Sequence record: OL770073.2
DNA: 64,000 nucleotides
Strand: one strand, 5' to 3'
Source of the DNA: Escherichia phage vB_EcoM-RPN226
The position numbers were made by a program, and so were the translations under genes. The notes under the pieces were generated by a model that saw nothing but the letters and a program-made list of their open reading frames with translations, was not told where the DNA came from and ran no database searches. Positions 30,480 to 62,804 of the stretch are shown piece by piece. Numbering within the stretch: the first letter of the stretch is position 1; each line of letters starts with the position of its first letter.

Positions 30480-31495
30480 TAATTTAGGCCTAGGTATAAG
30501 GTGACTTATACTTGTAATCTATCTAAACGGGGGACCTCTCTAGTAGACAATCCCGTGCTAAATTGTAGGACTACCCTTTAATAAATACTTCTATATAAAA
30601 AGAGGTGTTTATGAAAAGCGGAATTTATCAGATTAAAAACACTTTAAACGGTAAAGTGTATGTTGGAAGTGCTAAAGATTTTGAGAAAAGATGGAAGAGA
30701 CATTTTAAAGACCTTGAAAACGGTGTTCACTCTTCTATAAAATTTCAAAGGTCTTTTAATAAACATGGTAATGTTTTTGAATGCTCTGTACTGGAAGAAA
30801 TTCCATATGAGAAAGATTTGATTATTGAACGAGAAAATTTTTGGATTAAAGAGCTAAATTCTAAAATTAATGGATATAATATTGCTGATGCGTCTTTTGG
30901 CGATGTGCTTTCAAATCATCCATTAAAAGAAGAAATTGCTAAGAAACGAGCTGAAACTGTTAAAGCTAAGATGCTTAAGCTTGGTCCTGATGGTCGGAAA
31001 GCTCTTTATGGTAAACACGGAAGTAAAAATGGCCGATGGAATCCAGAAAACCACAAGTTTTGTAAATGCGGTGTTCGCATACCATCTTCGGCTGATACTT
31101 GTGGAAAGTGCCGAAAACGTTCAGGTGAAAATAACCCGTTCTTTAATCACAAACATTCAGAAAAAACTAAAACTAAACTATCTGAAAAGATGAAAGGCAA
31201 AAAGCCAGCTAACATCAAAAAGATTTCATGCGATGGGATTATTTTTGAATGTGCAGCCGATGCGGCTAGACATTTTGAAATTTCATCAGGATTAGTTACT
31301 TACCGTGTAAAATCTGATAAGTGGAATTGGTTCTACATAAATGCCTAACGACTATCCCTTTGGGGAGTAGGGTCAAGTGACTCGAAACGATAGACATCTT
31401 GCTTCATCAAGATGGAGATATAGTCTGATCTGTATGGTGACATGCAGCTGGATATAATTCCGGGATAAGATTAACGACCTTATCTGAACATAATG
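30480..31495 (+). mobile_element. group I self-splicing intron in td (1016 nt) carrying I-TevI
   Basis: begins TAATTTAGGCCTAGGTATAAGGTGACTTATAC...; 3' end ...GAACATAATG; exon frames join to give a 286-aa TS. Confidence 0.9.
30611..31348 (+). CDS. intron-encoded GIY-YIG homing endonuclease I-TevI
   Basis: 245 aa; [38 protein letters not shown]... with zinc-finger linker and C-terminal DNA-binding domain. Confidence 0.9.
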   Translation: MKSGIYQIKNTLNGKVYVGSAKDFEKRWKRHFKDLENGVHSSIKFQRSFNKHGNVFECSVLEEIPYEKDLIIERENFWIKELNSKINGYNIADASFGDVLSNHPLKEEIAKKRAETVKAKMLKLGPDGRKALYGKHGSKNGRWNPENHKFCKCGVRIPSSADTCGKCRKRSGENNPFFNHKHSEKTKTKLSEKMKGKKPANIKKISCDGIIFECAADAARHFEISSGLVTYRVKSDKWNWFYINA

Positions 31496-31830: not shown

Positions 31831-32076
31831 ATGATTTTACGATTTAAGGATACTTCTGGTGTCGTTCTTTTTACACTTCCTAACCCAAGTGAGTTAGAAG
31901 TTCCAGGACCAAATCAGCCTATTATCATTTATGGCAAAAAATATTATACTCATAAAATGACCCGTGAGTATTTTGATAATAAAATTTCCACAGTTAAAAC
32001 TTCTTCTGATTGCTACTATGATATTACTGTTTTAACGGAACAACAATATGACGAATGTAGAACTTTAGCAGTATAA
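31831..32076 (+). CDS. hypothetical protein
   Basis: 81-aa ORF; 3' end overlaps the convergent GIY-YIG gene by 12 nt. Confidence 0.45.
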
Positions 32077-32796
32077 ATATGATTCCCAACAATCTAGAGC
32101 ACATCTTTTAGATATAAGTTTTCTGCTTATTCCGGTTTGACGCACAGCTTCTGCTATTGTTGGATATTCTACCCCATCTATACTTACTCTTAGATGGGGT
32201 TTCTTTTTACCTCTTTGTGAGTCAGAAATTCGTTTTCTAACTTCATTGGTATGTGTCTGTCCATAATATGGATTATTGATGCCTTTCATATTAAGTGCAG
32301 CGTTTCTTTCTTGGAACTTTTTGCTTATTTCTATAGCACGATCTAACCCATAGTGTTCTTCTATAGTTTTACCTTTAATATCTTTAGGTCTACCATGTTT
32401 TTGCTTAAGTTCTTCTGGTGATAATTTTGAATTATTATTTTTAATTGCATTTGAAATTTTATTAAGGATTTCTTGCTTTCTTGGGTGATGAGATAAGGTA
32501 TCCCCAAACGATGCGTCTGCTATATTATACCCATTTTCCTTTGAGTCATATTCATGTATCCAATAATTTTCACGTTCAATAATGATAGATTTTTCGTATG
32601 GAAGTTCTTCTATGATTTTACATACGAAAGCATCTTTCCCATGCTTATTATAAGAACGTTGCAGCTTTATTGAATGATGATTTCCATTATCTAAATCTTT
32701 GAAGTGTCGTTTCCATCGTTCTTCAAAATTAATTGCACTTCCTATATAGTGCTTATTGGTTTTAGTGTTTATAATAGCATATATTCCAGATTTCAT
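32065..32796 (-). CDS. free-standing GIY-YIG homing endonuclease, I-TevI paralog
   Basis: 243 aa; first ~110 residues closely parallel I-TevI ([38 protein letters not shown]...[12 protein letters not shown]); minus-strand TATAAATA plus AGGAG RBS upstream. Confidence 0.85.
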
Positions 32797-32818
32797 TATA
32801 TTCTCCTATATAAAATTA

Positions 32819-32826
32819 TATTTATA
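32819..32826 (-). promoter_or_regulatory. T4 late promoter (TATAAATA) for the antisense GIY-YIG gene
   Basis: minus strand reads CCCATATAAATATAATTTTATATAGGAGAATATA-ATG. Confidence 0.6.
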
Positions 32827-32851
32827 TGGGGTAACTTACTACAGAGGACTT

Positions 32852-34285
32852 ATGCAATTAATTAATGTTATCAAAAGTAGTGGTGTTTCTCAGAGCTTTG
32901 ACCCGCAAAAAATTATTAAAGTTTTATCTTGGGCAGCTGAAGGAACATCTGTAGATCCTTATGAATTATATGAAAATATTAAATCATATCTCCGTGATGG
33001 AATGACAACTGATGACATTCAGACTATTGTCATTAAGGCTGCTGCGAATTCTATTTCAGTTGAAGAGCCTGATTATCAATATGTAGCTGCACGCTGTTTA
33101 ATGTTCGCTCTTCGTAAGCATGTTTACGGGCAATATGAGCCCCGTTCATTTATTGACCATATTTCTTACTGTGTAAATGAAGGTAAATATGACCCTGAAC
33201 TGCTGTCAAAATATTCAGCAGAAGAAATTACATTTTTAGAATCAAAAATTAAGCACGAGCGGGATATGGAATTTACTTATTCCGGGGCGATGCAATTAAA
33301 AGAAAAATATCTCGTTAAAGATAAAACCACTGGTCAAATTTATGAAACTCCGCAGTTTGCATTTATGACTATTGGAATGGCATTGCATCAAGATGAACCT
33401 GTTGACAGATTAAAACATGTTATTCGTTTTTATGAAGCAGTATCTACTCGACAGATTTCACTGCCAACTCCTATTATGGCTGGATGTCGTACTCCAACTC
33501 GACAGTTTAGTTCATGCGTTGTTATTGAAGCAGGTGATTCGCTGAAGTCTATCAATAAGGCTTCTGCTTCAATTGTTGAGTATATTTCTAAACGAGCTGG
33601 AATTGGTATTAACGTTGGTATGATTCGTGCCGAAGGTTCTAAGATTGGCACAGGTGAAGTGCGTCATACTGGTGTTATTCCTTTTTGGAAACATTTTCAG
33701 ACTGCTGTTAAATCATGTTCACAGGGCGGAATTCGTGGCGGCGCTGCTACTGCTTATTATCCTATTTGGCATTTGGAAGTTGAAAATCTTCTCGTTTTGA
33801 AAAATAACAAAGGCGTAGAAGAAAACCGTATCCGTCATATGGATTATGGTGTTCAGCTGAATGACCTAATGATGGAACGATTCGGAAAGAACGATTACAT
33901 TACTTTGTTTAGTCCGCATGAAATGGGTGGCGAACTTTATTATTCTTATTTTAAAGACCAAGACCGCTTCCGTGAATTGTACGAAGCTGCAGAAAAAGAC
34001 CCTAATATTCGTAAAAAGCGTATTAAAGCGCGTGAACTGTTTGAACTACTCATGACTGAACGATCAGGAACAGCGAGGATTTATGTACAGTTCATTGATA
34101 ATACGAATAACTATACTCCATTTATTCGTGAAAAGGCACCTATTCGTCAGAGTAACTTGTGCTGTGAAATTGCTATTCCAACAAATGATGTGAATAGCCA
34201 ACAAACCCGTTTAATCAAAATTAAGAAGTCGGATGTAGCTAAGTTTTATGAAGTTAATCCTGGCGGTATAATTCAAAGCAAATAA
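32852..34285 (+). CDS. nrdA: ribonucleotide reductase alpha subunit, N-terminal fragment (NrdA-a)
   Basis: 477 aa from MQLINVIKSSG...; NrdA similarity through ...IRQSNLCCEIAIPTNDVNS, then 27 unrelated residues and a stop. Confidence 0.8.
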   Translation: MQLINVIKSSGVSQSFDPQKIIKVLSWAAEGTSVDPYELYENIKSYLRDGMTTDDIQTIVIKAAANSISVEEPDYQYVAARCLMFALRKHVYGQYEPRSFIDHISYCVNEGKYDPELLSKYSAEEITFLESKIKHERDMEFTYSGAMQLKEKYLVKDKTTGQIYETPQFAFMTIGMALHQDEPVDRLKHVIRFYEAVSTRQISLPTPIMAGCRTPTRQFSSCVVIEAGDSLKSINKASASIVEYISKRAGIGINVGMIRAEGSKIGTGEVRHTGVIPFWKHFQTAVKSCSQGGIRGGAATAYYPIWHLEVENLLVLKNNKGVEENRIRHMDYGVQLNDLMMERFGKNDYITLFSPHEMGGELYYSYFKDQDRFRELYEAAEKDPNIRKKRIKARELFELLMTERSGTARIYVQFIDNTNNYTPFIREKAPIRQSNLCCEIAIPTNDVNSQQTRLIKIKKSDVAKFYEVNPGGIIQSK

Positions 34286-34330
34286 AGTACACAGACCGTT
34301 AATAAATAATCCATAACAAGAGGAAAAGTT

Positions 34331-35041
34331 ATGGATTATTCTAAAATTTACAATAACCTTATTTCTAAAGCTAAGAACAGAAAATTAGATTGCTATACCG
34401 AATCACACCATATTATACCTCTGTGTATTGGTGGTTCTGATACAAAGGAAAACCTGGCAGATTTGACACCCGAAGAGCATTATATAGCTCATCAATTATT
34501 AGTAAAGATATATCCAGATAATCATAAATTGGTATTTGCCGCTAATATGATGTGTGTGTATTCTGAAGATAATATTGAACGAAAGAACACCAATAAACGC
34601 CATGGGTGGCTTAGAAGAAAATTGGCTATTTCTGTATCTGAAAATAATAAAGGCAAACCAGCTTGGAACAAAGGTATTCCGGTAACTGACGAGCATAGAG
34701 AAAAACTTCAAACAACTTGGGTATTTACTTTCCCGGACGGTCATGAAGAAATCCATAAAGGCCTAAGAGAATTTTGCGAACTACATTCACTCAATGCTTC
34801 GGCAATGTCGGCCGTATGCAAAGGCAAAAGGTCTCAACATAAAGGCTTTAAGTGTCGAAAGTTTGATAATATCTCTGAAAACGATAATCAAGAATACGTC
34901 AGTAAACCTCATCCAAAGGGATTAAAACCCCATAACTTAATTGCTGTAAAAATAAACGGTATAGAATATCAATCAATACATCGAGCATCTAAAGCTCTAG
35001 GAATATCTCGAAAAAAGGTAGAAGAATTAAATGAATATTGA
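34331..35041 (+). CDS. HNH homing endonuclease (Mob-like) inserted within nrdA
   Basis: 236 aa; HNH motif ...YTESHHIIPLCIGGSDTKENLADLTPEEHYIAHQLL; own RBS AAGAGGAAAA; AATAAATA late-promoter-like motif upstream. Confidence 0.8.
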   Translation: MDYSKIYNNLISKAKNRKLDCYTESHHIIPLCIGGSDTKENLADLTPEEHYIAHQLLVKIYPDNHKLVFAANMMCVYSEDNIERKNTNKRHGWLRRKLAISVSENNKGKPAWNKGIPVTDEHREKLQTTWVFTFPDGHEEIHKGLREFCELHSLNASAMSAVCKGKRSQHKGFKCRKFDNISENDNQEYVSKPHPKGLKPHNLIAVKINGIEYQSIHRASKALGISRKKVEELNEY

Positions 35042-36020
35042 TTATGAATTTGTAGATGAATTTTACGAAGATGATGAGTATACAACAATACAAGTTATTG
35101 AAAACAAAGGTGAAGTGGGCCTTTGTACCCTTAGCGCATTTGTGCTGGATAACTTCGATTGGCAAGACCAAGATAAAATCAACGAATTAGCAGAAGTTCA
35201 AGTTCGTGCTCTTGATAATCTTTTGGATTACCAAGGATATCCAGTTCCTGAAGCAGAAAAAGCTAAAAAGCGTCGAAACCTTGGCGTAGGTGTTACTAAC
35301 TATGCAGCTTGGCTGGCAAGTAACTTTGCTTCTTATGAAGATGCTAACGATTTAACACATGAACTATTTGAGAGATTACAGTATGGACTCATTAAAGCAT
35401 CCATTAAGCTCGCCAAAGAAAAAGGACCTTGCGAATATTATTCAGACACTCGTTGGTCTCGAGGCGAATTACCTATCGACTGGTACAATAAAAAGATTGA
35501 CCAAATCGCAGCTCCAAAATACGTTTGTGACTGGTCGTCGCTGCGGGAAGACCTTAAGCTCTTTGGCATCCGTAATAGCACATTATCAGCACTTATGCCA
35601 TGTGAGTCATCTTCCCAAGTTTCTAACAGTACAAACGGTATCGAGCCTCCACGTGGACCAGTCTCTGTTAAAGAATCAAAAGAGGGTTCCTTTAATCAAG
35701 TCGTGCCCAATATTGAGCATAACATAGACCTCTATGATTATACGTGGAAATTAGCTAAGAAAGGTAATAAACCTTATCTTACGCAGGTAGCTATTATGCT
35801 GAAATGGGTATGTCAATCAGCTTCAGCGAATACATATTATGACCCGCAGATTTTTCCAAAAGGAAAGGTTCCAATGTCTGTAATGATTGATGACATGCTA
35901 TACGGATGGTATTATGGCATTAAAAACTTCTATTATCATAATACCCGCGATGGTTCTGGTACTGATGATTATGAAATAGAAACTCCAAAAGCTGAAGATT
36001 GTTCATCCTGTAAATTATGA
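35031..36020 (+). CDS. nrdA: ribonucleotide reductase alpha subunit, C-terminal fragment (NrdA-b)
   Basis: 329 aa; own ATG and AAGG RBS inside the HNH 3' end; 26-aa acidic leader then ...GEVGLCTLSAF... to C-terminal ...CSSCKL. Confidence 0.8.
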   Translation: MNIDYEFVDEFYEDDEYTTIQVIENKGEVGLCTLSAFVLDNFDWQDQDKINELAEVQVRALDNLLDYQGYPVPEAEKAKKRRNLGVGVTNYAAWLASNFASYEDANDLTHELFERLQYGLIKASIKLAKEKGPCEYYSDTRWSRGELPIDWYNKKIDQIAAPKYVCDWSSLREDLKLFGIRNSTLSALMPCESSSQVSNSTNGIEPPRGPVSVKESKEGSFNQVVPNIEHNIDLYDYTWKLAKKGNKPYLTQVAIMLKWVCQSASANTYYDPQIFPKGKVPMSVMIDDMLYGWYYGIKNFYYHNTRDGSGTDDYEIETPKAEDCSSCKL

Positions 36021-58262: not shown

Positions 58263-58660
58263 TGGCAAATATTAATAAGCTTTATTCTGACATTGACCCA
58301 GAAATGAAAATGGATTGGGACAAAGATGTTTCTAGATCTCTTGGATTAAGGTCAATCAAAAATAGCCTTTTGGGAATTATTACAACCAGAAAAGGGTCAA
58401 GACCATTTGACCCAGAATTTGGATGCGATTTATCTGATCAGCTTTTTGAGAATATGACTCCTCTTACTGCTGATACTGTTGAGCGTAACATTGAAAGCGC
58501 AGTAAGAAACTACGAGCCACGTATTGATAAATTAGCAGTTAATGTAATACCAGTTTATGATGATTATACTCTGATAGTAGAAATACGCTTTTCGGTCATC
58601 GATAACCCTGATGATATTGAGCAGATAAAACTACAACTGGCTTCCAGTAACAGAGTATAA
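58262..58660 (+). CDS. 25: baseplate wedge protein gp25
   Basis: 132 aa; ATGG overlap with gene 26. Confidence 0.85.
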   Translation: MANINKLYSDIDPEMKMDWDKDVSRSLGLRSIKNSLLGIITTRKGSRPFDPEFGCDLSDQLFENMTPLTADTVERNIESAVRNYEPRIDKLAVNVIPVYDDYTLIVEIRFSVIDNPDDIEQIKLQLASSNRV

Positions 58661-58726
58661 TGCTTCACGTATAAACGTGGTATAATGAATCTAAGTCCAT
58701 CCAATAACAATTGAATAGAGAACAAT

Positions 58727-59140
58727 ATGAGATTAGAAGATCTTCAAGAAGAATTGAAGAAAGATGTGTTTATAGATTCGACTAAATTACAGTATGAAGC
58801 AGCTAATAATGTGATGTTATATAGTAAATGGCTCAATAAGCATTCAAGTATTAAAAAGGAAATGCTTAGAATTGAAGCGCAGAAAAAAGTTGCTCTTAAA
58901 GCTAAATTAGACTACTACTCGGGACGAGGAGATGGTGATGAATTTAGTATGGACCGTTATGAGAAATCAGAAATGAAGACAGTTCTATCAGCTGATAAGG
59001 ATGTTTTAAAAGTTGATACTTCATTACAATATTGGGGAATTTTATTAGATTTCTGTAGCGGAGCTCTTGATGCTATTAAATCACGTGGATTTGCTATTAA
59101 GCATATTCAAGACATGCGAGCATTTGAGGCTGGAAAATAA
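58727..59140 (+). CDS. uvsY: recombination mediator UvsY
   Basis: 137 aa; synteny. Confidence 0.85.
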   Translation: MRLEDLQEELKKDVFIDSTKLQYEAANNVMLYSKWLNKHSSIKKEMLRIEAQKKVALKAKLDYYSGRGDGDEFSMDRYEKSEMKTVLSADKDVLKVDTSLQYWGILLDFCSGALDAIKSRGFAIKHIQDMRAFEAGK

Positions 59141-59364
59141 TGAAATATAGCATTGATGATGCTTTTAATTATGAAGAAGAATTCGAAACGGAAATTCAAT
59201 TCTTAATGAAAAAGTATAATCTCAAGCGCCAGGATATTCGTATCCTGGCCGACCACCCGTGCGGTGAAGATGTACTTTATATTAAAGGAAAATTTGCCGG
59301 ATATCTTGATGAATATTTTTATTCTAAAGATATGGGCATTGATATGCATATGAGAGTTATATAA
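59140..59364 (+). CDS. hypothetical protein (uvsY.-1 position)
   Basis: 74-aa ORF. Confidence 0.5.
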   Translation: MKYSIDDAFNYEEEFETEIQFLMKKYNLKRQDIRILADHPCGEDVLYIKGKFAGYLDEYFYSKDMGIDMHMRVI

Positions 59365-59392
59365 ATAGATATATAATTTAGAGGAGACAATC

Positions 59393-59560
59393 ATGTCAGA
59401 TAAGATTTGTGTTGTCTGTAAAACTCCAATCGATTCTGCATTGGTTGTTGAAACAGACAAAGGTCCTGTACATCCTGGGCCTTGCTATAATTACATTAAA
59501 GAACTACCAGTTTCAGAAAGTTCGGAAGAACAATTAAATGAAACACAACTTTTGCTATAG
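59393..59560 (+). CDS. small CxxC protein (uvsY.-2 position)
   Basis: 55-aa ORF MSDKICVVCKTPIDS..., below the track cutoff; TATAAATA at 59360-59367 and GAGGAG RBS. Confidence 0.5.
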   Translation: MSDKICVVCKTPIDSALVVETDKGPVHPGPCYNYIKELPVSESSEEQLNETQLLL

Positions 59561-59616
59561 TGTGACCTTTAGTCTATAGTTTTGGCCCTTCCTTTTTGGT
59601 TGGGCCTTTTTTTAAT

Positions 59617-59859
59617 TTAAAAGCTTTCTTCTACTTCATCGTCTGAATCTTCTAATTCAGCTCTTTTTCCTGCCAAAGCATCTCTCACAGAGATGTCATC
59701 AGTATCTTTTAATTCAGTTTCTTTAACTCTTTTCTTGTAATAAGCTTCAAGTTCTTCTAGACCTTCTAATGTTTGACAAGAGGCAATTTTACCCATAAAT
59801 TCATCAATAGAAGCTTCATAAAGAAATTGTTTAAATTTTAGTAACATCTTTTTCTCCAA
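59617..59859 (-). CDS. hypothetical acidic protein (uvsW.1 position)
   Basis: 80-aa ORF. Confidence 0.5.
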   Translation of the reverse strand: MEKKMLLKFKQFLYEASIDEFMGKIASCQTLEGLEELEAYYKKRVKETELKDTDDISVRDALAGKRAELEDSDDEVEESF

Positions 59860-59872
59860 AGGGCCGGAGCCC

Positions 59873-60565
59873 TTATAAATTAACTGTTTTTCTAAGTATT
59901 CTTAGTTTGTACATTGATAATCCAGTAGCTTTAGAAGCATCTTTCATGCATTTATACTTAACACCATTTACTTCTATAGGTTTAGCAGCTGGGTTATTAG
60001 CTCCTGAATTATCTGGCATGTTATCTTTAATTTTCTGAATAGATTTAGCGGAATGTTTCCTTCCGTACATGCCGTTATTTTTACCCGATTGATTGATCGA
60101 ATGTAATCTTTTAGCTTCTTCAGTCCATTTCGTTGGGTTCATTCTTTTAGTTTTACTAATTTTATTTCCCCATGTAATTGGACGACTTTTCATGAGTTTT
60201 GACATATATTGTTTATGTTCTTCCGTATGGTGTTTTCCGTAAAATGGATTACCTTCGCCGGATTGAAGTTCTGCCATTTTACGACGTTCCCATGCGTAAG
60301 ATTTATTGACGTGTCTTTCATGAGTATTTGAATTCATTCCCATACATATAACGGCTTTAATTATACCGTAATGGTTTGGATGAATTTTAGCTAAAAGTTT
60401 ATGGGCTATAAAATGTTCTTCAGCCGTTAGTTCTACTAAATTACACTTATCATTTGTACCACCCATGCATCTAGGAATTATATGATGAGTTTCAGTGTAT
60501 CCATTAAGGCGAGCCCGATTCTGGGCTCTATTAATTAAATTATCATATATTAATTTATAATTCAA
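59873..60565 (-). CDS. HNH homing endonuclease (Mob-like), free-standing
   Basis: 230 aa; HNH motif ...YTETHHIIPRCMGGTNDKCNLVELTAEEHFIAHKLL; paralog of the nrdA-inserted HNH; start codon abuts the uvsW stop. Confidence 0.8.
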   Translation of the reverse strand: MNYKLIYDNLINRAQNRARLNGYTETHHIIPRCMGGTNDKCNLVELTAEEHFIAHKLLAKIHPNHYGIIKAVICMGMNSNTHERHVNKSYAWERRKMAELQSGEGNPFYGKHHTEEHKQYMSKLMKSRPITWGNKISKTKRMNPTKWTEEAKRLHSINQSGKNNGMYGRKHSAKSIQKIKDNMPDNSGANNPAAKPIEVNGVKYKCMKDASKATGLSMYKLRILRKTVNL

Positions 60566-62073
60566 AGTTTAACCTCTTTCATCACATAATTGAACTTCTC
60601 ATCAGCATAACGCTGAATACGATCAAGTCCATGTTTTAAAAGATAGTTTAAATGCGAGTATTTTTTAGAAGATGTTTTTGATTTAGAAACTACGCCCGCG
60701 TCATCTATGAGGTCCCAGACCGTTGCTATTGTCTTAGAACCATGCTTACGTAATACGCGACCTATTGTTTGCAATACAATAATTTTAGATTTAACGCCGT
60801 GCGCTAAAACAACATGATGCAGATTTTTAACTGAAATACCAGTAGAAAATACACCATAACTAGCTACTATAATTATTCCTTTACCGTTTTCAGCTAGGGT
60901 TTTCATTACGTTGCGTGTTTCGGTATCAACTTCCCCTGATACGTAATAAACTTTATCGTATTCATTTTTAATTAAATCGAAAATAGCTTTACCGTGCGAT
61001 ACGTGTTTAAACATGACAAAAGCGTTTTCATCTTTTTGTGCAAGTTTAATAGCTAATTTAGCGATCCATTTATTTCTTTTACTGAGCCCAGTAATAATTT
61101 TTATTTCTTCTTGGTAAGTTTTTCCCTTTAATTTAGTAGTGAACTCATCGGGATAGCGAAGAAAAATACTATTAATTTTTAACTCAGTTACTTGTCCATC
61201 TTCCATTAATTTAGAAGTCGTTACTGGCTTAAATATTTCACCAAACATTCCAACATACTGCATGATATTGGCTTTGCCATCGCGTAATGAACCCGATAGA
61301 CCAAATTTGAACATGCAGTTATTTAAACCTGATATGATAGATGAAATACTTTTTCCTGTAGCAAGATGGCATTCATCATTCATCATCATTCCAAACTGTG
61401 AGAACCATTCTTTCGGTTGTTTTACTACAGTTTGCCATGTACCAACAACGACTGGTGCATCATTTTTATATTTATCATCTTTTGATGCTCCACCGCCAAT
61501 TTTCTTTATCATTGTATGACTGAATAAACGATAGTCAACGAAGTCATCAGCCATCTGAGTTGTCAGAGCCGTTGTTGGAACAATGATAAGAATTTTACCT
61601 TCATAATTTTCCAAATAATAACGTGCAAGCAAAGCTTGAATTAAAGATTTACCTGCAGATGTTGGAAGATTAAGAATTCTACGACGATTAACTAATCCTT
61701 CGAACACTGCATCTTTTTGATACCAGTGTGGTTCAATTCTTTTATTTCCTGAATAGATTTCTAATTTAGAAAGCCATTCATCAAAATCTTTTCTTGATAA
61801 TTCTTCTTTTTCGTTAATTTGCGGGTCAATCCAAGCTTTATAGCCAAAGTTATCGCAGAACTTTTTAATTTGCCCGACTAAGCCGAATGGAAGAAGACGA
61901 TTATAATCTAAAAGACGGATTCGTCCATCCCAGTTGCCATATCTGAAGCGAGGATTAAAACGATACCCATCAGCTTCAAAGCTAAAGAAATCACGGAGTT
62001 CATGAAATGTACTTTCTTCACAATCAATTCTCACGTGACTAAAATCATAAAAATGTACTTTAATGTCAGTCAT
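60562..62073 (-). CDS. uvsW: UvsW RNA-DNA and DNA helicase
   Basis: 503 aa; SF2 helicase motifs (PTSAGKS Walker A, DECH box). Confidence 0.9.
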   Translation of the reverse strand: MTDIKVHFYDFSHVRIDCEESTFHELRDFFSFEADGYRFNPRFRYGNWDGRIRLLDYNRLLPFGLVGQIKKFCDNFGYKAWIDPQINEKEELSRKDFDEWLSKLEIYSGNKRIEPHWYQKDAVFEGLVNRRRILNLPTSAGKSLIQALLARYYLENYEGKILIIVPTTALTTQMADDFVDYRLFSHTMIKKIGGGASKDDKYKNDAPVVVGTWQTVVKQPKEWFSQFGMMMNDECHLATGKSISSIISGLNNCMFKFGLSGSLRDGKANIMQYVGMFGEIFKPVTTSKLMEDGQVTELKINSIFLRYPDEFTTKLKGKTYQEEIKIITGLSKRNKWIAKLAIKLAQKDENAFVMFKHVSHGKAIFDLIKNEYDKVYYVSGEVDTETRNVMKTLAENGKGIIIVASYGVFSTGISVKNLHHVVLAHGVKSKIIVLQTIGRVLRKHGSKTIATVWDLIDDAGVVSKSKTSSKKYSHLNYLLKHGLDRIQRYADEKFNYVMKEVKL

Positions 62074-62123
62074 GTCTAAATACCATGTAATAAATATATC
62101 TATATTTATACTGAGGAAATATT
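62074..62123. promoter_or_regulatory. divergent late promoter region between uvsW and inh
   Basis: minus-strand GTATAAATATAG before the uvsW ATG; plus-strand TAATAAATAT before the ORF at 62124. Confidence 0.5.
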
Positions 62124-62804
62124 ATGATAGATAAAGATTATATTGCAGAGCTGAAGGCTCTTGATGATAATAAAGAAGCTAAGGCTAAATTAGCTGAATA
62201 TGCTGAACAGTTTGGTATAAAGGTCAAAAAGAATAAATCTTTTGATAATATCGTTATTGATATTGAAGAAGCCCTCCAGAAGCTCGCTAGTGAACCTATG
62301 CCAGAGACTGATGGGTTATCTATTAAAGACTTAATTAATGCTGCTGATGCCGCAGACGGATTAAAATATGACGATGAAGAAGTCAATCCAGAGGCAGCAC
62401 TTCTGATTGATTCTCCAGTTAAATCTGACATTAAAATTGAAGTAGTCGAAACGGATAAAATTCCCGAAAATACCGATGTTTTGATTGAAGATACTCCTTT
62501 TGTTGAAGAAAAATTCGAGAAGGCTGTAGCTGAGATTATTGAATCTGAAAAGCCGTCTGTATTTACTCTTCCGGAAAACTTTAGTCCGAATCTTCAGCTG
62601 ATTGGAAAAAATCCAGGATTCTGTACTGTTCCTTGGTGGATTTATCAGTGGATTGCTGAAACTCCGGATTGGAAATCTCACCCAACTAGTTTTGAACATG
62701 CGTCGGCACACCAAACTTTATTTAGCTTAATTTATTACATTAATCGCGACGGATCAGTTCTAATTCGTGAAACACGCAATTCTTCTTTCGTAACATTAAA
62801 ATAA
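62124..62804 (+). CDS. inh: probable Inh (inhibitor of prohead protease)
   Basis: 226 aa at the syntenic position directly upstream of hoc. Confidence 0.6.
   Translation: MIDKDYIAELKALDDNKEAKAKLAEYAEQFGIKVKKNKSFDNIVIDIEEALQKLASEPMPETDGLSIKDLINAADAADGLKYDDEEVNPEAALLIDSPVKSDIKIEVVETDKIPENTDVLIEDTPFVEEKFEKAVAEIIESEKPSVFTLPENFSPNLQLIGKNPGFCTVPWWIYQWIAETPDWKSHPTSFEHASAHQTLFSLIYYINRDGSVLIRETRNSSFVTLK

Follow-up and report, generated by a model that had tools for sequence, protein, structure and literature searches.

How does a homing endonuclease gene come to stand at the 3' end of uvsW, a recombination-helicase gene, in a T4-like phage, how is it expressed from that position, and does it behave as a mobile element there? 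We addressed these questions in a 64,000-nt stretch of DNA from Escherichia phage vB_EcoM-RPN226 (OL770073.2), referred to here as the window. The initial annotation had described a 230-aa HNH ORF on the minus strand whose start codon abuts the uvsW stop codon at 60562-60565, and on both points it was right: the ORF is real, opens with TTG, and shares a TTGA overlap with uvsW.

Identity of the endonuclease gene

The ORF listing of the window, together with the domain searches described below, gives the following arrangement.

59873..60565, minus strand: endonuclease ORF, a Mob-type HNH homing endonuclease of 230 aa with a TTG start
60562..62073, minus strand: uvsW helicase gene, 503 aa, intact and of the same length as in endonuclease-free relatives
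60562..60565, minus strand: TTGA overlap, made up of the endonuclease TTG (60565-60563) and the uvsW TGA (60564-60562)
59848..59872, minus strand: unchanged 25-nt spacer between uvsW and uvsW.1, with hairpin GGGCTCCGGCCC (59872-59861) and a GGAG ribosome site (59857-59854)
59617..59847, minus strand: uvsW.1, 76 aa, its identity to endonuclease-free relatives staying at 97-100% as far as the edge of the insertion
60401..60487, minus strand: HNH catalytic core (residues 27-55), HHIIPRCMGGTNDKCNLVELTAEEHFIAH, which T4 MobE matches almost exactly
60200..60286, minus strand: best NUMOD3 motif, residues 94-122
59918..60097, minus strand: residues 157-216, the C-terminal region for DNA binding, which resembles the I-TevI DNA-binding domain

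At the junction the minus strand reads ...AAA CTT TGA ATT..., with the 4 nt TTGA common to both ORFs. The TTG is the true start of the endonuclease gene, because the next in-frame Met is residue 34, within the HNH motif, and because the N-terminus MNYxxIY aligns with residue 1 of T4 MobB-E. Upstream, uvsW encodes the UvsW_N, ResIII/DEAD and Helicase_C domains, and the small ORF downstream is uvsW.1 (Pfam PF11637, 1.7e-30), the real start of which is the ATG at 59847 with GGAG ahead. The endonuclease gene is free-standing: both of its neighbours are intact and there was no Rfam match.

That the ORF did not arise by chance is clear from its matches to phrog_655 'homing endonuclease' (3.9e-60, PHROGs), to NUMOD3 (two motifs, Pfam 7.6e-14) and to T4 MobE. 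BLASTP against the T4 protein set translated from NC_000866 matched four Mob proteins, namely MobE (51% identity over 106 aa, E 1.7e-31), MobD (57% over 75, E 5.5e-25), MobB (44% over 126, E 1.3e-25) and MobC (43% over 107, E 5.6e-19), and the identity to MobE settles membership of the Mob family. The proposed paralogy with the HNH gene inserted in nrdA was also borne out, as the endonuclease and the nrdA-associated HNH ORF at 34331-35041 share 35% identity over 242 aligned positions (E 1e-37); phrog_655 takes in this second ORF as well.

The core HHIIPRCMGGTNDKCNLVELTAEEHFIAH holds H27/H28, N42 and H51/H55 and aligns almost residue for residue with T4 MobE, MobB and MobD. The HNH motif is thus intact on alignment; its Pfam PF01844 score lies below threshold (16.2 vs 21.4 bits). 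The second NUMOD3 motif falls at about residues 155-180. Residues 157-216 align with the NUMOD3 helix and the helix-turn-helix of the I-TevI DNA-binding domain (PDB 1I3J, E 0.006), the corresponding Pfam match being below threshold. Unlike I-TevI, the window enzyme has an HNH and not a GIY-YIG catalytic domain, and its gene stands outside an intron; the I-TevI-like region is an instance of DNA-binding modules exchanged between GIY-YIG and HNH endonucleases, a kind of shuffling already known. An AlphaFold2 model from a 2-sequence alignment had a mean pLDDT of 41, with only residues 190-230 reaching 60-77, a quality too low to bear on the beta-beta-alpha-metal fold of the HNH superfamily. The protein is predicted to consist of an HNH nuclease at the N-terminus, two NUMOD3 linkers and, at the C-terminus, a helix-turn-helix of I-TevI type, and the ORF encodes an intact MobE-like, Mob-type free-standing HNH homing endonuclease.

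Public records name the gene 'mobD' (PST), 'GIY-YIG homing endonuclease', 'group I intron endonuclease' or 'hypothetical', labels that are wrong or empty, and inconsistent annotation also touches the T6 MH550421, Nispero and Metamorpho records. The third of these labels, found in several GenBank records, would make the protein a group I intron-encoded or intein-type endonuclease, a reading to which we give next to no credence. The label traces to a TIGR01453 match that is below threshold (30 vs 56 bits) and limited to residues 97-216, the shared NUMOD3/HTH region. The endonuclease has no GIY-YIG domain, no Rfam family, group I introns included, was matched in 58500-62500 at E up to 1, and every endonuclease-free phage has uvsW and uvsW.1 as separate ORFs. 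A true start at TTG (GTG in some genera) over the uvsW stop escapes annotation pipelines; the SP18 RefSeq CDS (697-1296 in extracted locus L041) starts 32 codons, or 96 nt, late, inside the HNH motif.

Two neighbouring annotations also deserve comment. The T4 reference NC_000866 contains an old sequencing error, already known in the literature, at the GGGCTTCGGCCC hairpin (~2660-2700 of the extracted locus): it reads …TTTAATAAGCTTCGG… where …TTTATAAGGGCTTCGG… is correct, and uvsW and uvsW.1 are thereby fused into a 587-aa ORF. In Bp7, uvsW (556-2059 of extracted locus L040) is annotated as two CDS, 556-768 and 1079-2059, and the 310-nt gap between them could reflect a sequencing error, a frameshift or one more insertion towards the 5' end. 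We rejected as very improbable the idea that the uvsW/uvsW.1 split is itself the relic of an ancient endonuclease insertion: UvsW.1 compared with 1.84 billion representatives gave 26 matches, all of them small proteins or ~290-aa proteins that carry the UvsW.1 domain N-terminally, and none fused to a helicase C-terminus. A role in a defence system was rejected too, PADLOC returning only a generic 'homing endonuclease' model.

Insertion point, linked uvsW tail and distribution

The initial annotation had the gene inserted exactly between uvsW and the downstream ORF, and this did not stand. In endonuclease-free Tequatroviruses uvsW ends ...GTA ATG AAA ACA GTT AAT TTA TAA, followed by a 25-nt spacer and the uvsW.1 ATG. 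In the window uvsW ends ...GTG ATG AAA GAG GTT AAA CTT TGA, and it is the endonuclease ORF that ends ...AGA AAA ACA GTT AAT TTA TAA before the unchanged spacer. The end of the endonuclease gene is therefore the native uvsW terminus, which places the insertion point five codons inside uvsW, and uvsW itself now finishes in a foreign tail. Three further features define the junction.

60562..60702, minus strand: foreign uvsW tail, the last 47 codons (141 nt), linked to the endonuclease gene
60573..60576, minus strand: GAGG, which resembles a Shine-Dalgarno sequence and lies 7 nt ahead of the TTG start
59873..59890, minus strand: AAAACAGTTAATTTATAA (K-T-V-N-L-stop), the original uvsW terminus in its displaced position, which bounds the insertion on the right

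The displaced terminus is identical to the uvsW end of endonuclease-free Tequatroviruses and now encodes the C-terminus and stop of the endonuclease, and the window uvsW is completed by a surrogate terminus, KEVKL-stop. The uvsW.1 hairpin and ribosome site are untouched by the insertion.

The foreign tail is 68% identical to the T4-type sequence, with 45 nucleotide substitutions, mostly synonymous, and 11 amino acid differences. Elsewhere in the locus a sliding comparison gave 95-100% identity to T4-type phages: the 144 nt of uvsW ahead of the tail hold 5 differences, all silent, and identity directly downstream of the insertion is 97-100%. The GAGG arises within the tail from a Thr-to-Glu codon change in UvsW (ACA to GAG) and occurs in Bp7 and PM2 as well. 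The tail supplies the putative GAGG ribosome site, the TTG start and the new uvsW stop. As read from these alignments, the element is a promoterless cassette lodged in the last codons of uvsW, made up of a foreign 141-nt uvsW 3' end and then the endonuclease ORF.

The left breakpoint of the tail, at ~60692-60702, is common to all Tequatrovirus carriers. A query spanning it was covered in full in 53 records, and endonuclease-free phages align only to ~60692-60701. At 95% identity or above the tail was found in exactly 48 records, all of them carriers, the next best being partial matches at ~87%; the linkage of tail and endonuclease gene is therefore complete. Among 50,697 phage records, no donor of the tail was found between the carriers (at least 95%) and the partial matches at ~87%, and none in the sampled genera was closer than 71% overall. 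The donor is unsampled.

The expectation that T4 lacks an endonuclease at this junction was confirmed, and the suggested strain-specific mobile insertion agrees with the distribution of the gene. Megablast with the locus matched 698 phage records, 48 of which have the ORF, and tblastn returned the identical 48 at 95% amino acid identity or above. Carriers include T6, Yersinia phage PST, G8, HY03 and UFV-AREG1. An uninterrupted T4-type junction was present in 601 records (498 at 95% identity or above), all of these record counts containing GenBank/RefSeq duplicates. With 48 carriers against 601 uninterrupted junctions, the gene is sporadic and not universal, occurring in ~9% of close Tequatroviruses.

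The same site is used well beyond this genus. Among the matches listed, all 74 full-length homologues adjoin a helicase annotation, and we verified the junction itself in T6, G8, ZN18, BF15, Roth16, NM4.3, SP18, PM2, Rgz1 and Bp7. At least six more genera of Straboviridae have diverged homologues at this junction, with identities of 69% in Klebsiella phage Roth16 (13 records are of this type), 66% in Moonvirus NM4.3, 56% in Gaprivervirus SP18, 55% in Gualtarvirus Rgz1 and 53% in Bragavirus PM2. In Dhakavirus Bp7 this place is taken by a Mob-type gene of 260 aa, which has the N-terminal nuclease alone in common with the window endonuclease.

Altered uvsW ends, again on one side of the gene only, accompany it in other genera too. 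In Klebsiella phages the last 100 nt of uvsW are 74% identical, vs 87-100% upstream and 97-100% downstream, and in Dhakavirus the last 200 nt are 63-80% identical, with 95-100% further upstream and 94-100% downstream. The Roth16 tail is 82-87% identical to that of Moonvirus NM4.3 vs 79-80% to the empty allele of its own genus, whereas upstream of the tail the order is reversed (74% to NM4.3 vs 90% to its own genus); this indicates that the tail travels with the gene between genera. In SP18 the C-terminus of the endonuclease repeats that of UvsW exactly (IKQVEI) and 19-nt direct repeats flank the element; in PM2 the repeated C-terminus is KEVKL and the direct repeats are of 14 nt. The left copy of the terminus in the window element is KEVKL-stop and the right copy KTVNL-stop. 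Such flanking direct repeats would also permit precise excision of the element. The seven carrier lineages have TAT followed by GTG, GTT, GTA, ATT, ATC or ACT at a position where most endonuclease-free alleles read TAC GTA ATG AAA. This difference between TAT and TAC GTA hints at a recognition site, which, with few independent events, is only suggestive.

Nei-Gojobori dN/dS is 0.03-0.07 among Tequatrovirus copies, so the endonuclease gene is maintained, and is at most 0.17 between genera. One copy, that of BF15, lacks 4 bp (ATCG, ~2476-2480 of extracted locus L036); the resulting frameshift shortens the product to 195 aa without the C-terminal DNA-binding region, owing either to decay of this copy or to an error in sequencing. 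This frameshifted copy, the single left breakpoint and single tail haplotype of all carriers, and a within-genus divergence of the gene of up to 3.6% nt, similar to that of its flanks, would all suit a stranded or domesticated gene. Such a gene would have entered Tequatrovirus a single time, along with part of a donor uvsW, and then been passed on by vertical descent and ordinary recombination, its product no longer cutting or kept for another role, e.g. excluding co-infecting phages. We consider this unlikely. The strong purifying selection speaks against a dead gene, the same family stands at the same site in seven genus-level lineages with differing junction details, and the tails of Roth16 and NM4.3 group by endonuclease presence and not by genus. 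This site fidelity and this grouping of tails imply repeated site-specific movement. Exclusion of competitors is not truly a separate mechanism either, since the same cleavage would achieve it.

Signals for expression

The initial annotation had proposed that the gene is co-transcribed with uvsW from a late promoter near 62103 and translationally coupled to it, and the signals found along the locus are consistent with both proposals.

62103..62110, minus strand: T4-type late promoter TATAAATA, an exact octamer ~30 nt before the uvsW ATG
60511..60528, minus strand: GC-rich hairpin GAGCCC/GGGCTC, starting 38 nt into the endonuclease ORF (-13.2 kcal/mol, z -3.2)

Between 62103 and uvsW.1 there is no exact late or MotA-type middle promoter, and the endonuclease gene is therefore a promoterless cassette. 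As the sole exact late-promoter octamer from its own position down to uvsW.1, TATAAATA is the presumed source of the endonuclease transcript. Candidates for an own endonuclease promoter or an embedded uvsW.1 promoter were rejected: they are one-mismatch octamers only, TATAAATT at 60552-60559 and TATAAATG at 59949-59956, and are not claimed as promoters because they are not conserved in Roth16.

An xTGA overlap between the endonuclease start and the uvsW stop is present in all seven genus-level lineages. The first base of the start codon is the wobble base of the last UvsW codon, and it gives a legal start in every lineage: TTG in the window, Bp7 and SP18, ATG in Roth16 and Rgz1, and GTG in NM4.3 and PM2, followed in all seven by a conserved MNY N-terminus. 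The conserved overlap is good comparative support for the predicted translational coupling. Since the two ORFs share 4 nt and a -1 shift leads from the uvsW frame into that of the endonuclease, frameshifting at the overlap might be thought to yield a UvsW-endonuclease fusion protein. This is exceedingly improbable, as GAG GTT AAA CTT TGA contains no X XXY YYZ slippery heptamer, the overlap always offers a legitimate start (ATG, GTG or TTG) with MNY across the seven lineages, and T4 mobE has the same type of overlap (PMC2988022).

The hairpin in the window stands at the position of the internal terminator of T4 mobE, which lies 27 nt past the AUG and has been proven to be a weak one (PMC2790892). 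In contrast to mobE, the window hairpin has no U-tract, so termination is doubtful and attenuation putative. Hairpins of different sequence occur at the same place in Roth16, NM4.3, Bp7, SP18, PM2 and Rgz1 (-12 to -19 kcal/mol; -17.9 kcal/mol for T4 mobE). In 7/7 lineages the hairpin lies 32-44 nt into the endonuclease ORF, with stems and encoded amino acids that differ and no strict alignment register among the stems. Its positions in the extracted loci are 2534-2552 in L034, 2033-2053 in L035, 2099-2115 in L040 (Bp7) and ~630-660 in L041 (SP18), L042 and L043. Such a hairpin is absent from the nrdA HNH gene of the window and from T4 mobB, mobC and mobD.

Probable homing at the uvsW 3' end and related systems

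Overall, MobE-like intronless homing at the 3' end of uvsW is the probable explanation of this locus. The endonuclease gene would be transcribed late from the uvsW promoter, and ribosomes that terminate at the TTGA overlap would reinitiate there and yield little of its product. As with T4 mobE, the hairpin beginning 38 nt into the ORF probably lowers expression still more. In a mixed infection, the enzyme would nick or cut the T4-type uvsW 3' end of a relative, probably within the last ~140 bp, and recombinational repair would transfer the endonuclease gene together with the variant tail to the recipient. The carrier, whose own tail holds the 45 substitutions, would be protected from cutting. 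The sequence comparisons show the architecture, the linkage, the selection and the faithfulness to one site, and it is cleavage, its position and immunity that we infer. The single left breakpoint in all Tequatrovirus carriers means that ongoing homing within the genus is not directly visible, and the TTG, a weak start, counts against this explanation. The foreign tail could alternatively be donor DNA that hitch-hiked once and not an immunity determinant.

We suggest tentatively, and with more doubt than confidence, that the mobile unit may be a 'gene-terminus replacement cassette', in which a recoded uvsW end, bringing the ribosome site, the start and immunity, is joined to a stopless endonuclease ORF. 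Judged by the junctions compared here, the terminus-replacement design recurs across seven genus-level lineages. In the literature searched we found no paper characterising the uvsW-junction endonuclease and no activity or inheritance data for it; the gene itself is already annotated, and the architecture of the junction is apparently undescribed.

T4 MobE, encoded at nrdA/nrdB, belongs to the same family as the window enzyme and has a near-identical HNH core. Both genes are promoterless and sporadic, both overlap the upstream stop with their start, and both have a GC hairpin ~30-40 nt into the ORF. MobE has been published as promoterless and equipped with an internal terminator, its nicking activity driving homing and being lost on deletion of the HNH motif (PMC2790892), and six other free-standing T4 endonucleases are likewise promoterless (PMC2988022). 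The window gene differs from mobE in its place at the uvsW 3' end, in its C-terminal DNA-binding part, in its TTG in place of AUG, and in lying inside the last codons of the upstream gene with a replacement tail.

Aeh1 mobE and the window HNH ORF at 34331-35041 resemble the uvsW endonuclease gene in that all are Mob-type HNH genes inside coding sequence. The nrdA insertions of Aeh1 and the window split the host gene into two ORFs, whereas the uvsW insertion leaves one intact host ORF. Window nrdA (32756-36020, plus strand) consists of ORF 32756-34285, with the ATP-cone, the all-alpha domain and barrel profile positions 1-221, and ORF 35031-36020, with barrel positions 219-523, the HNH ORF lying between these halves. 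It is a genes-in-pieces ribonucleotide reductase like that of Aeh1, while in T4 mobE stands after nrdA. Just upstream of nrdA, a GIY-YIG/NUMOD3 seg-like ORF occupies 32065-32796 (minus strand), and an I-TevI homologue with GIY-YIG, zinc finger and DNA-binding domain lies at 30605-31348 (plus strand).

In concept, the closest parallel is the mobA/gene 60 cassette. Bonocora et al. reportedly described in 2011 that T4 MobA and the gene 60 bypass element form a mobile cassette in the topoisomerase gene. There a Mob-type endonuclease is said to travel with an altered piece of its host gene, a piece that would protect the carrier from self-cleavage. In the window, by contrast, uvsW is unsplit and requires no translational bypass, and only its last 47 codons are replaced, the variant still encoding full-length UvsW.

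A second homing endonuclease is tied to the same host gene. T4 SegE, a GIY-YIG enzyme whose gene is inserted between inh and uvsW, targets uvsW at its 5' end (PMC2988022). Like the window gene, segE encodes a free-standing homing endonuclease associated with uvsW, and T6 has both, but SegE belongs to another nuclease family and its gene lies at the opposite (5') end. segE is absent from the window, where the gap between inh and uvsW (62074-62123) is only 50 nt. uvsW hosts homing endonucleases at both ends, and segE is carried by T4 and T6. The mob-like genes of T6 were counted by Petrov et al. 2010 (PMC2993671).

The endonuclease described here belongs to the known Mob family and is an ordinary representative of it; annotations of the gene already exist in T6 and ~50 other T4-like phages, and the finding leaves knowledge of homing endonucleases in general unchanged. 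It yields a concrete prediction, namely that the homing site lies in the final ~140 bp of uvsW, and it offers a clean natural case of a selfish endonuclease gene placed in a recombination-helicase gene with the host gene and the downstream translation signals undamaged.
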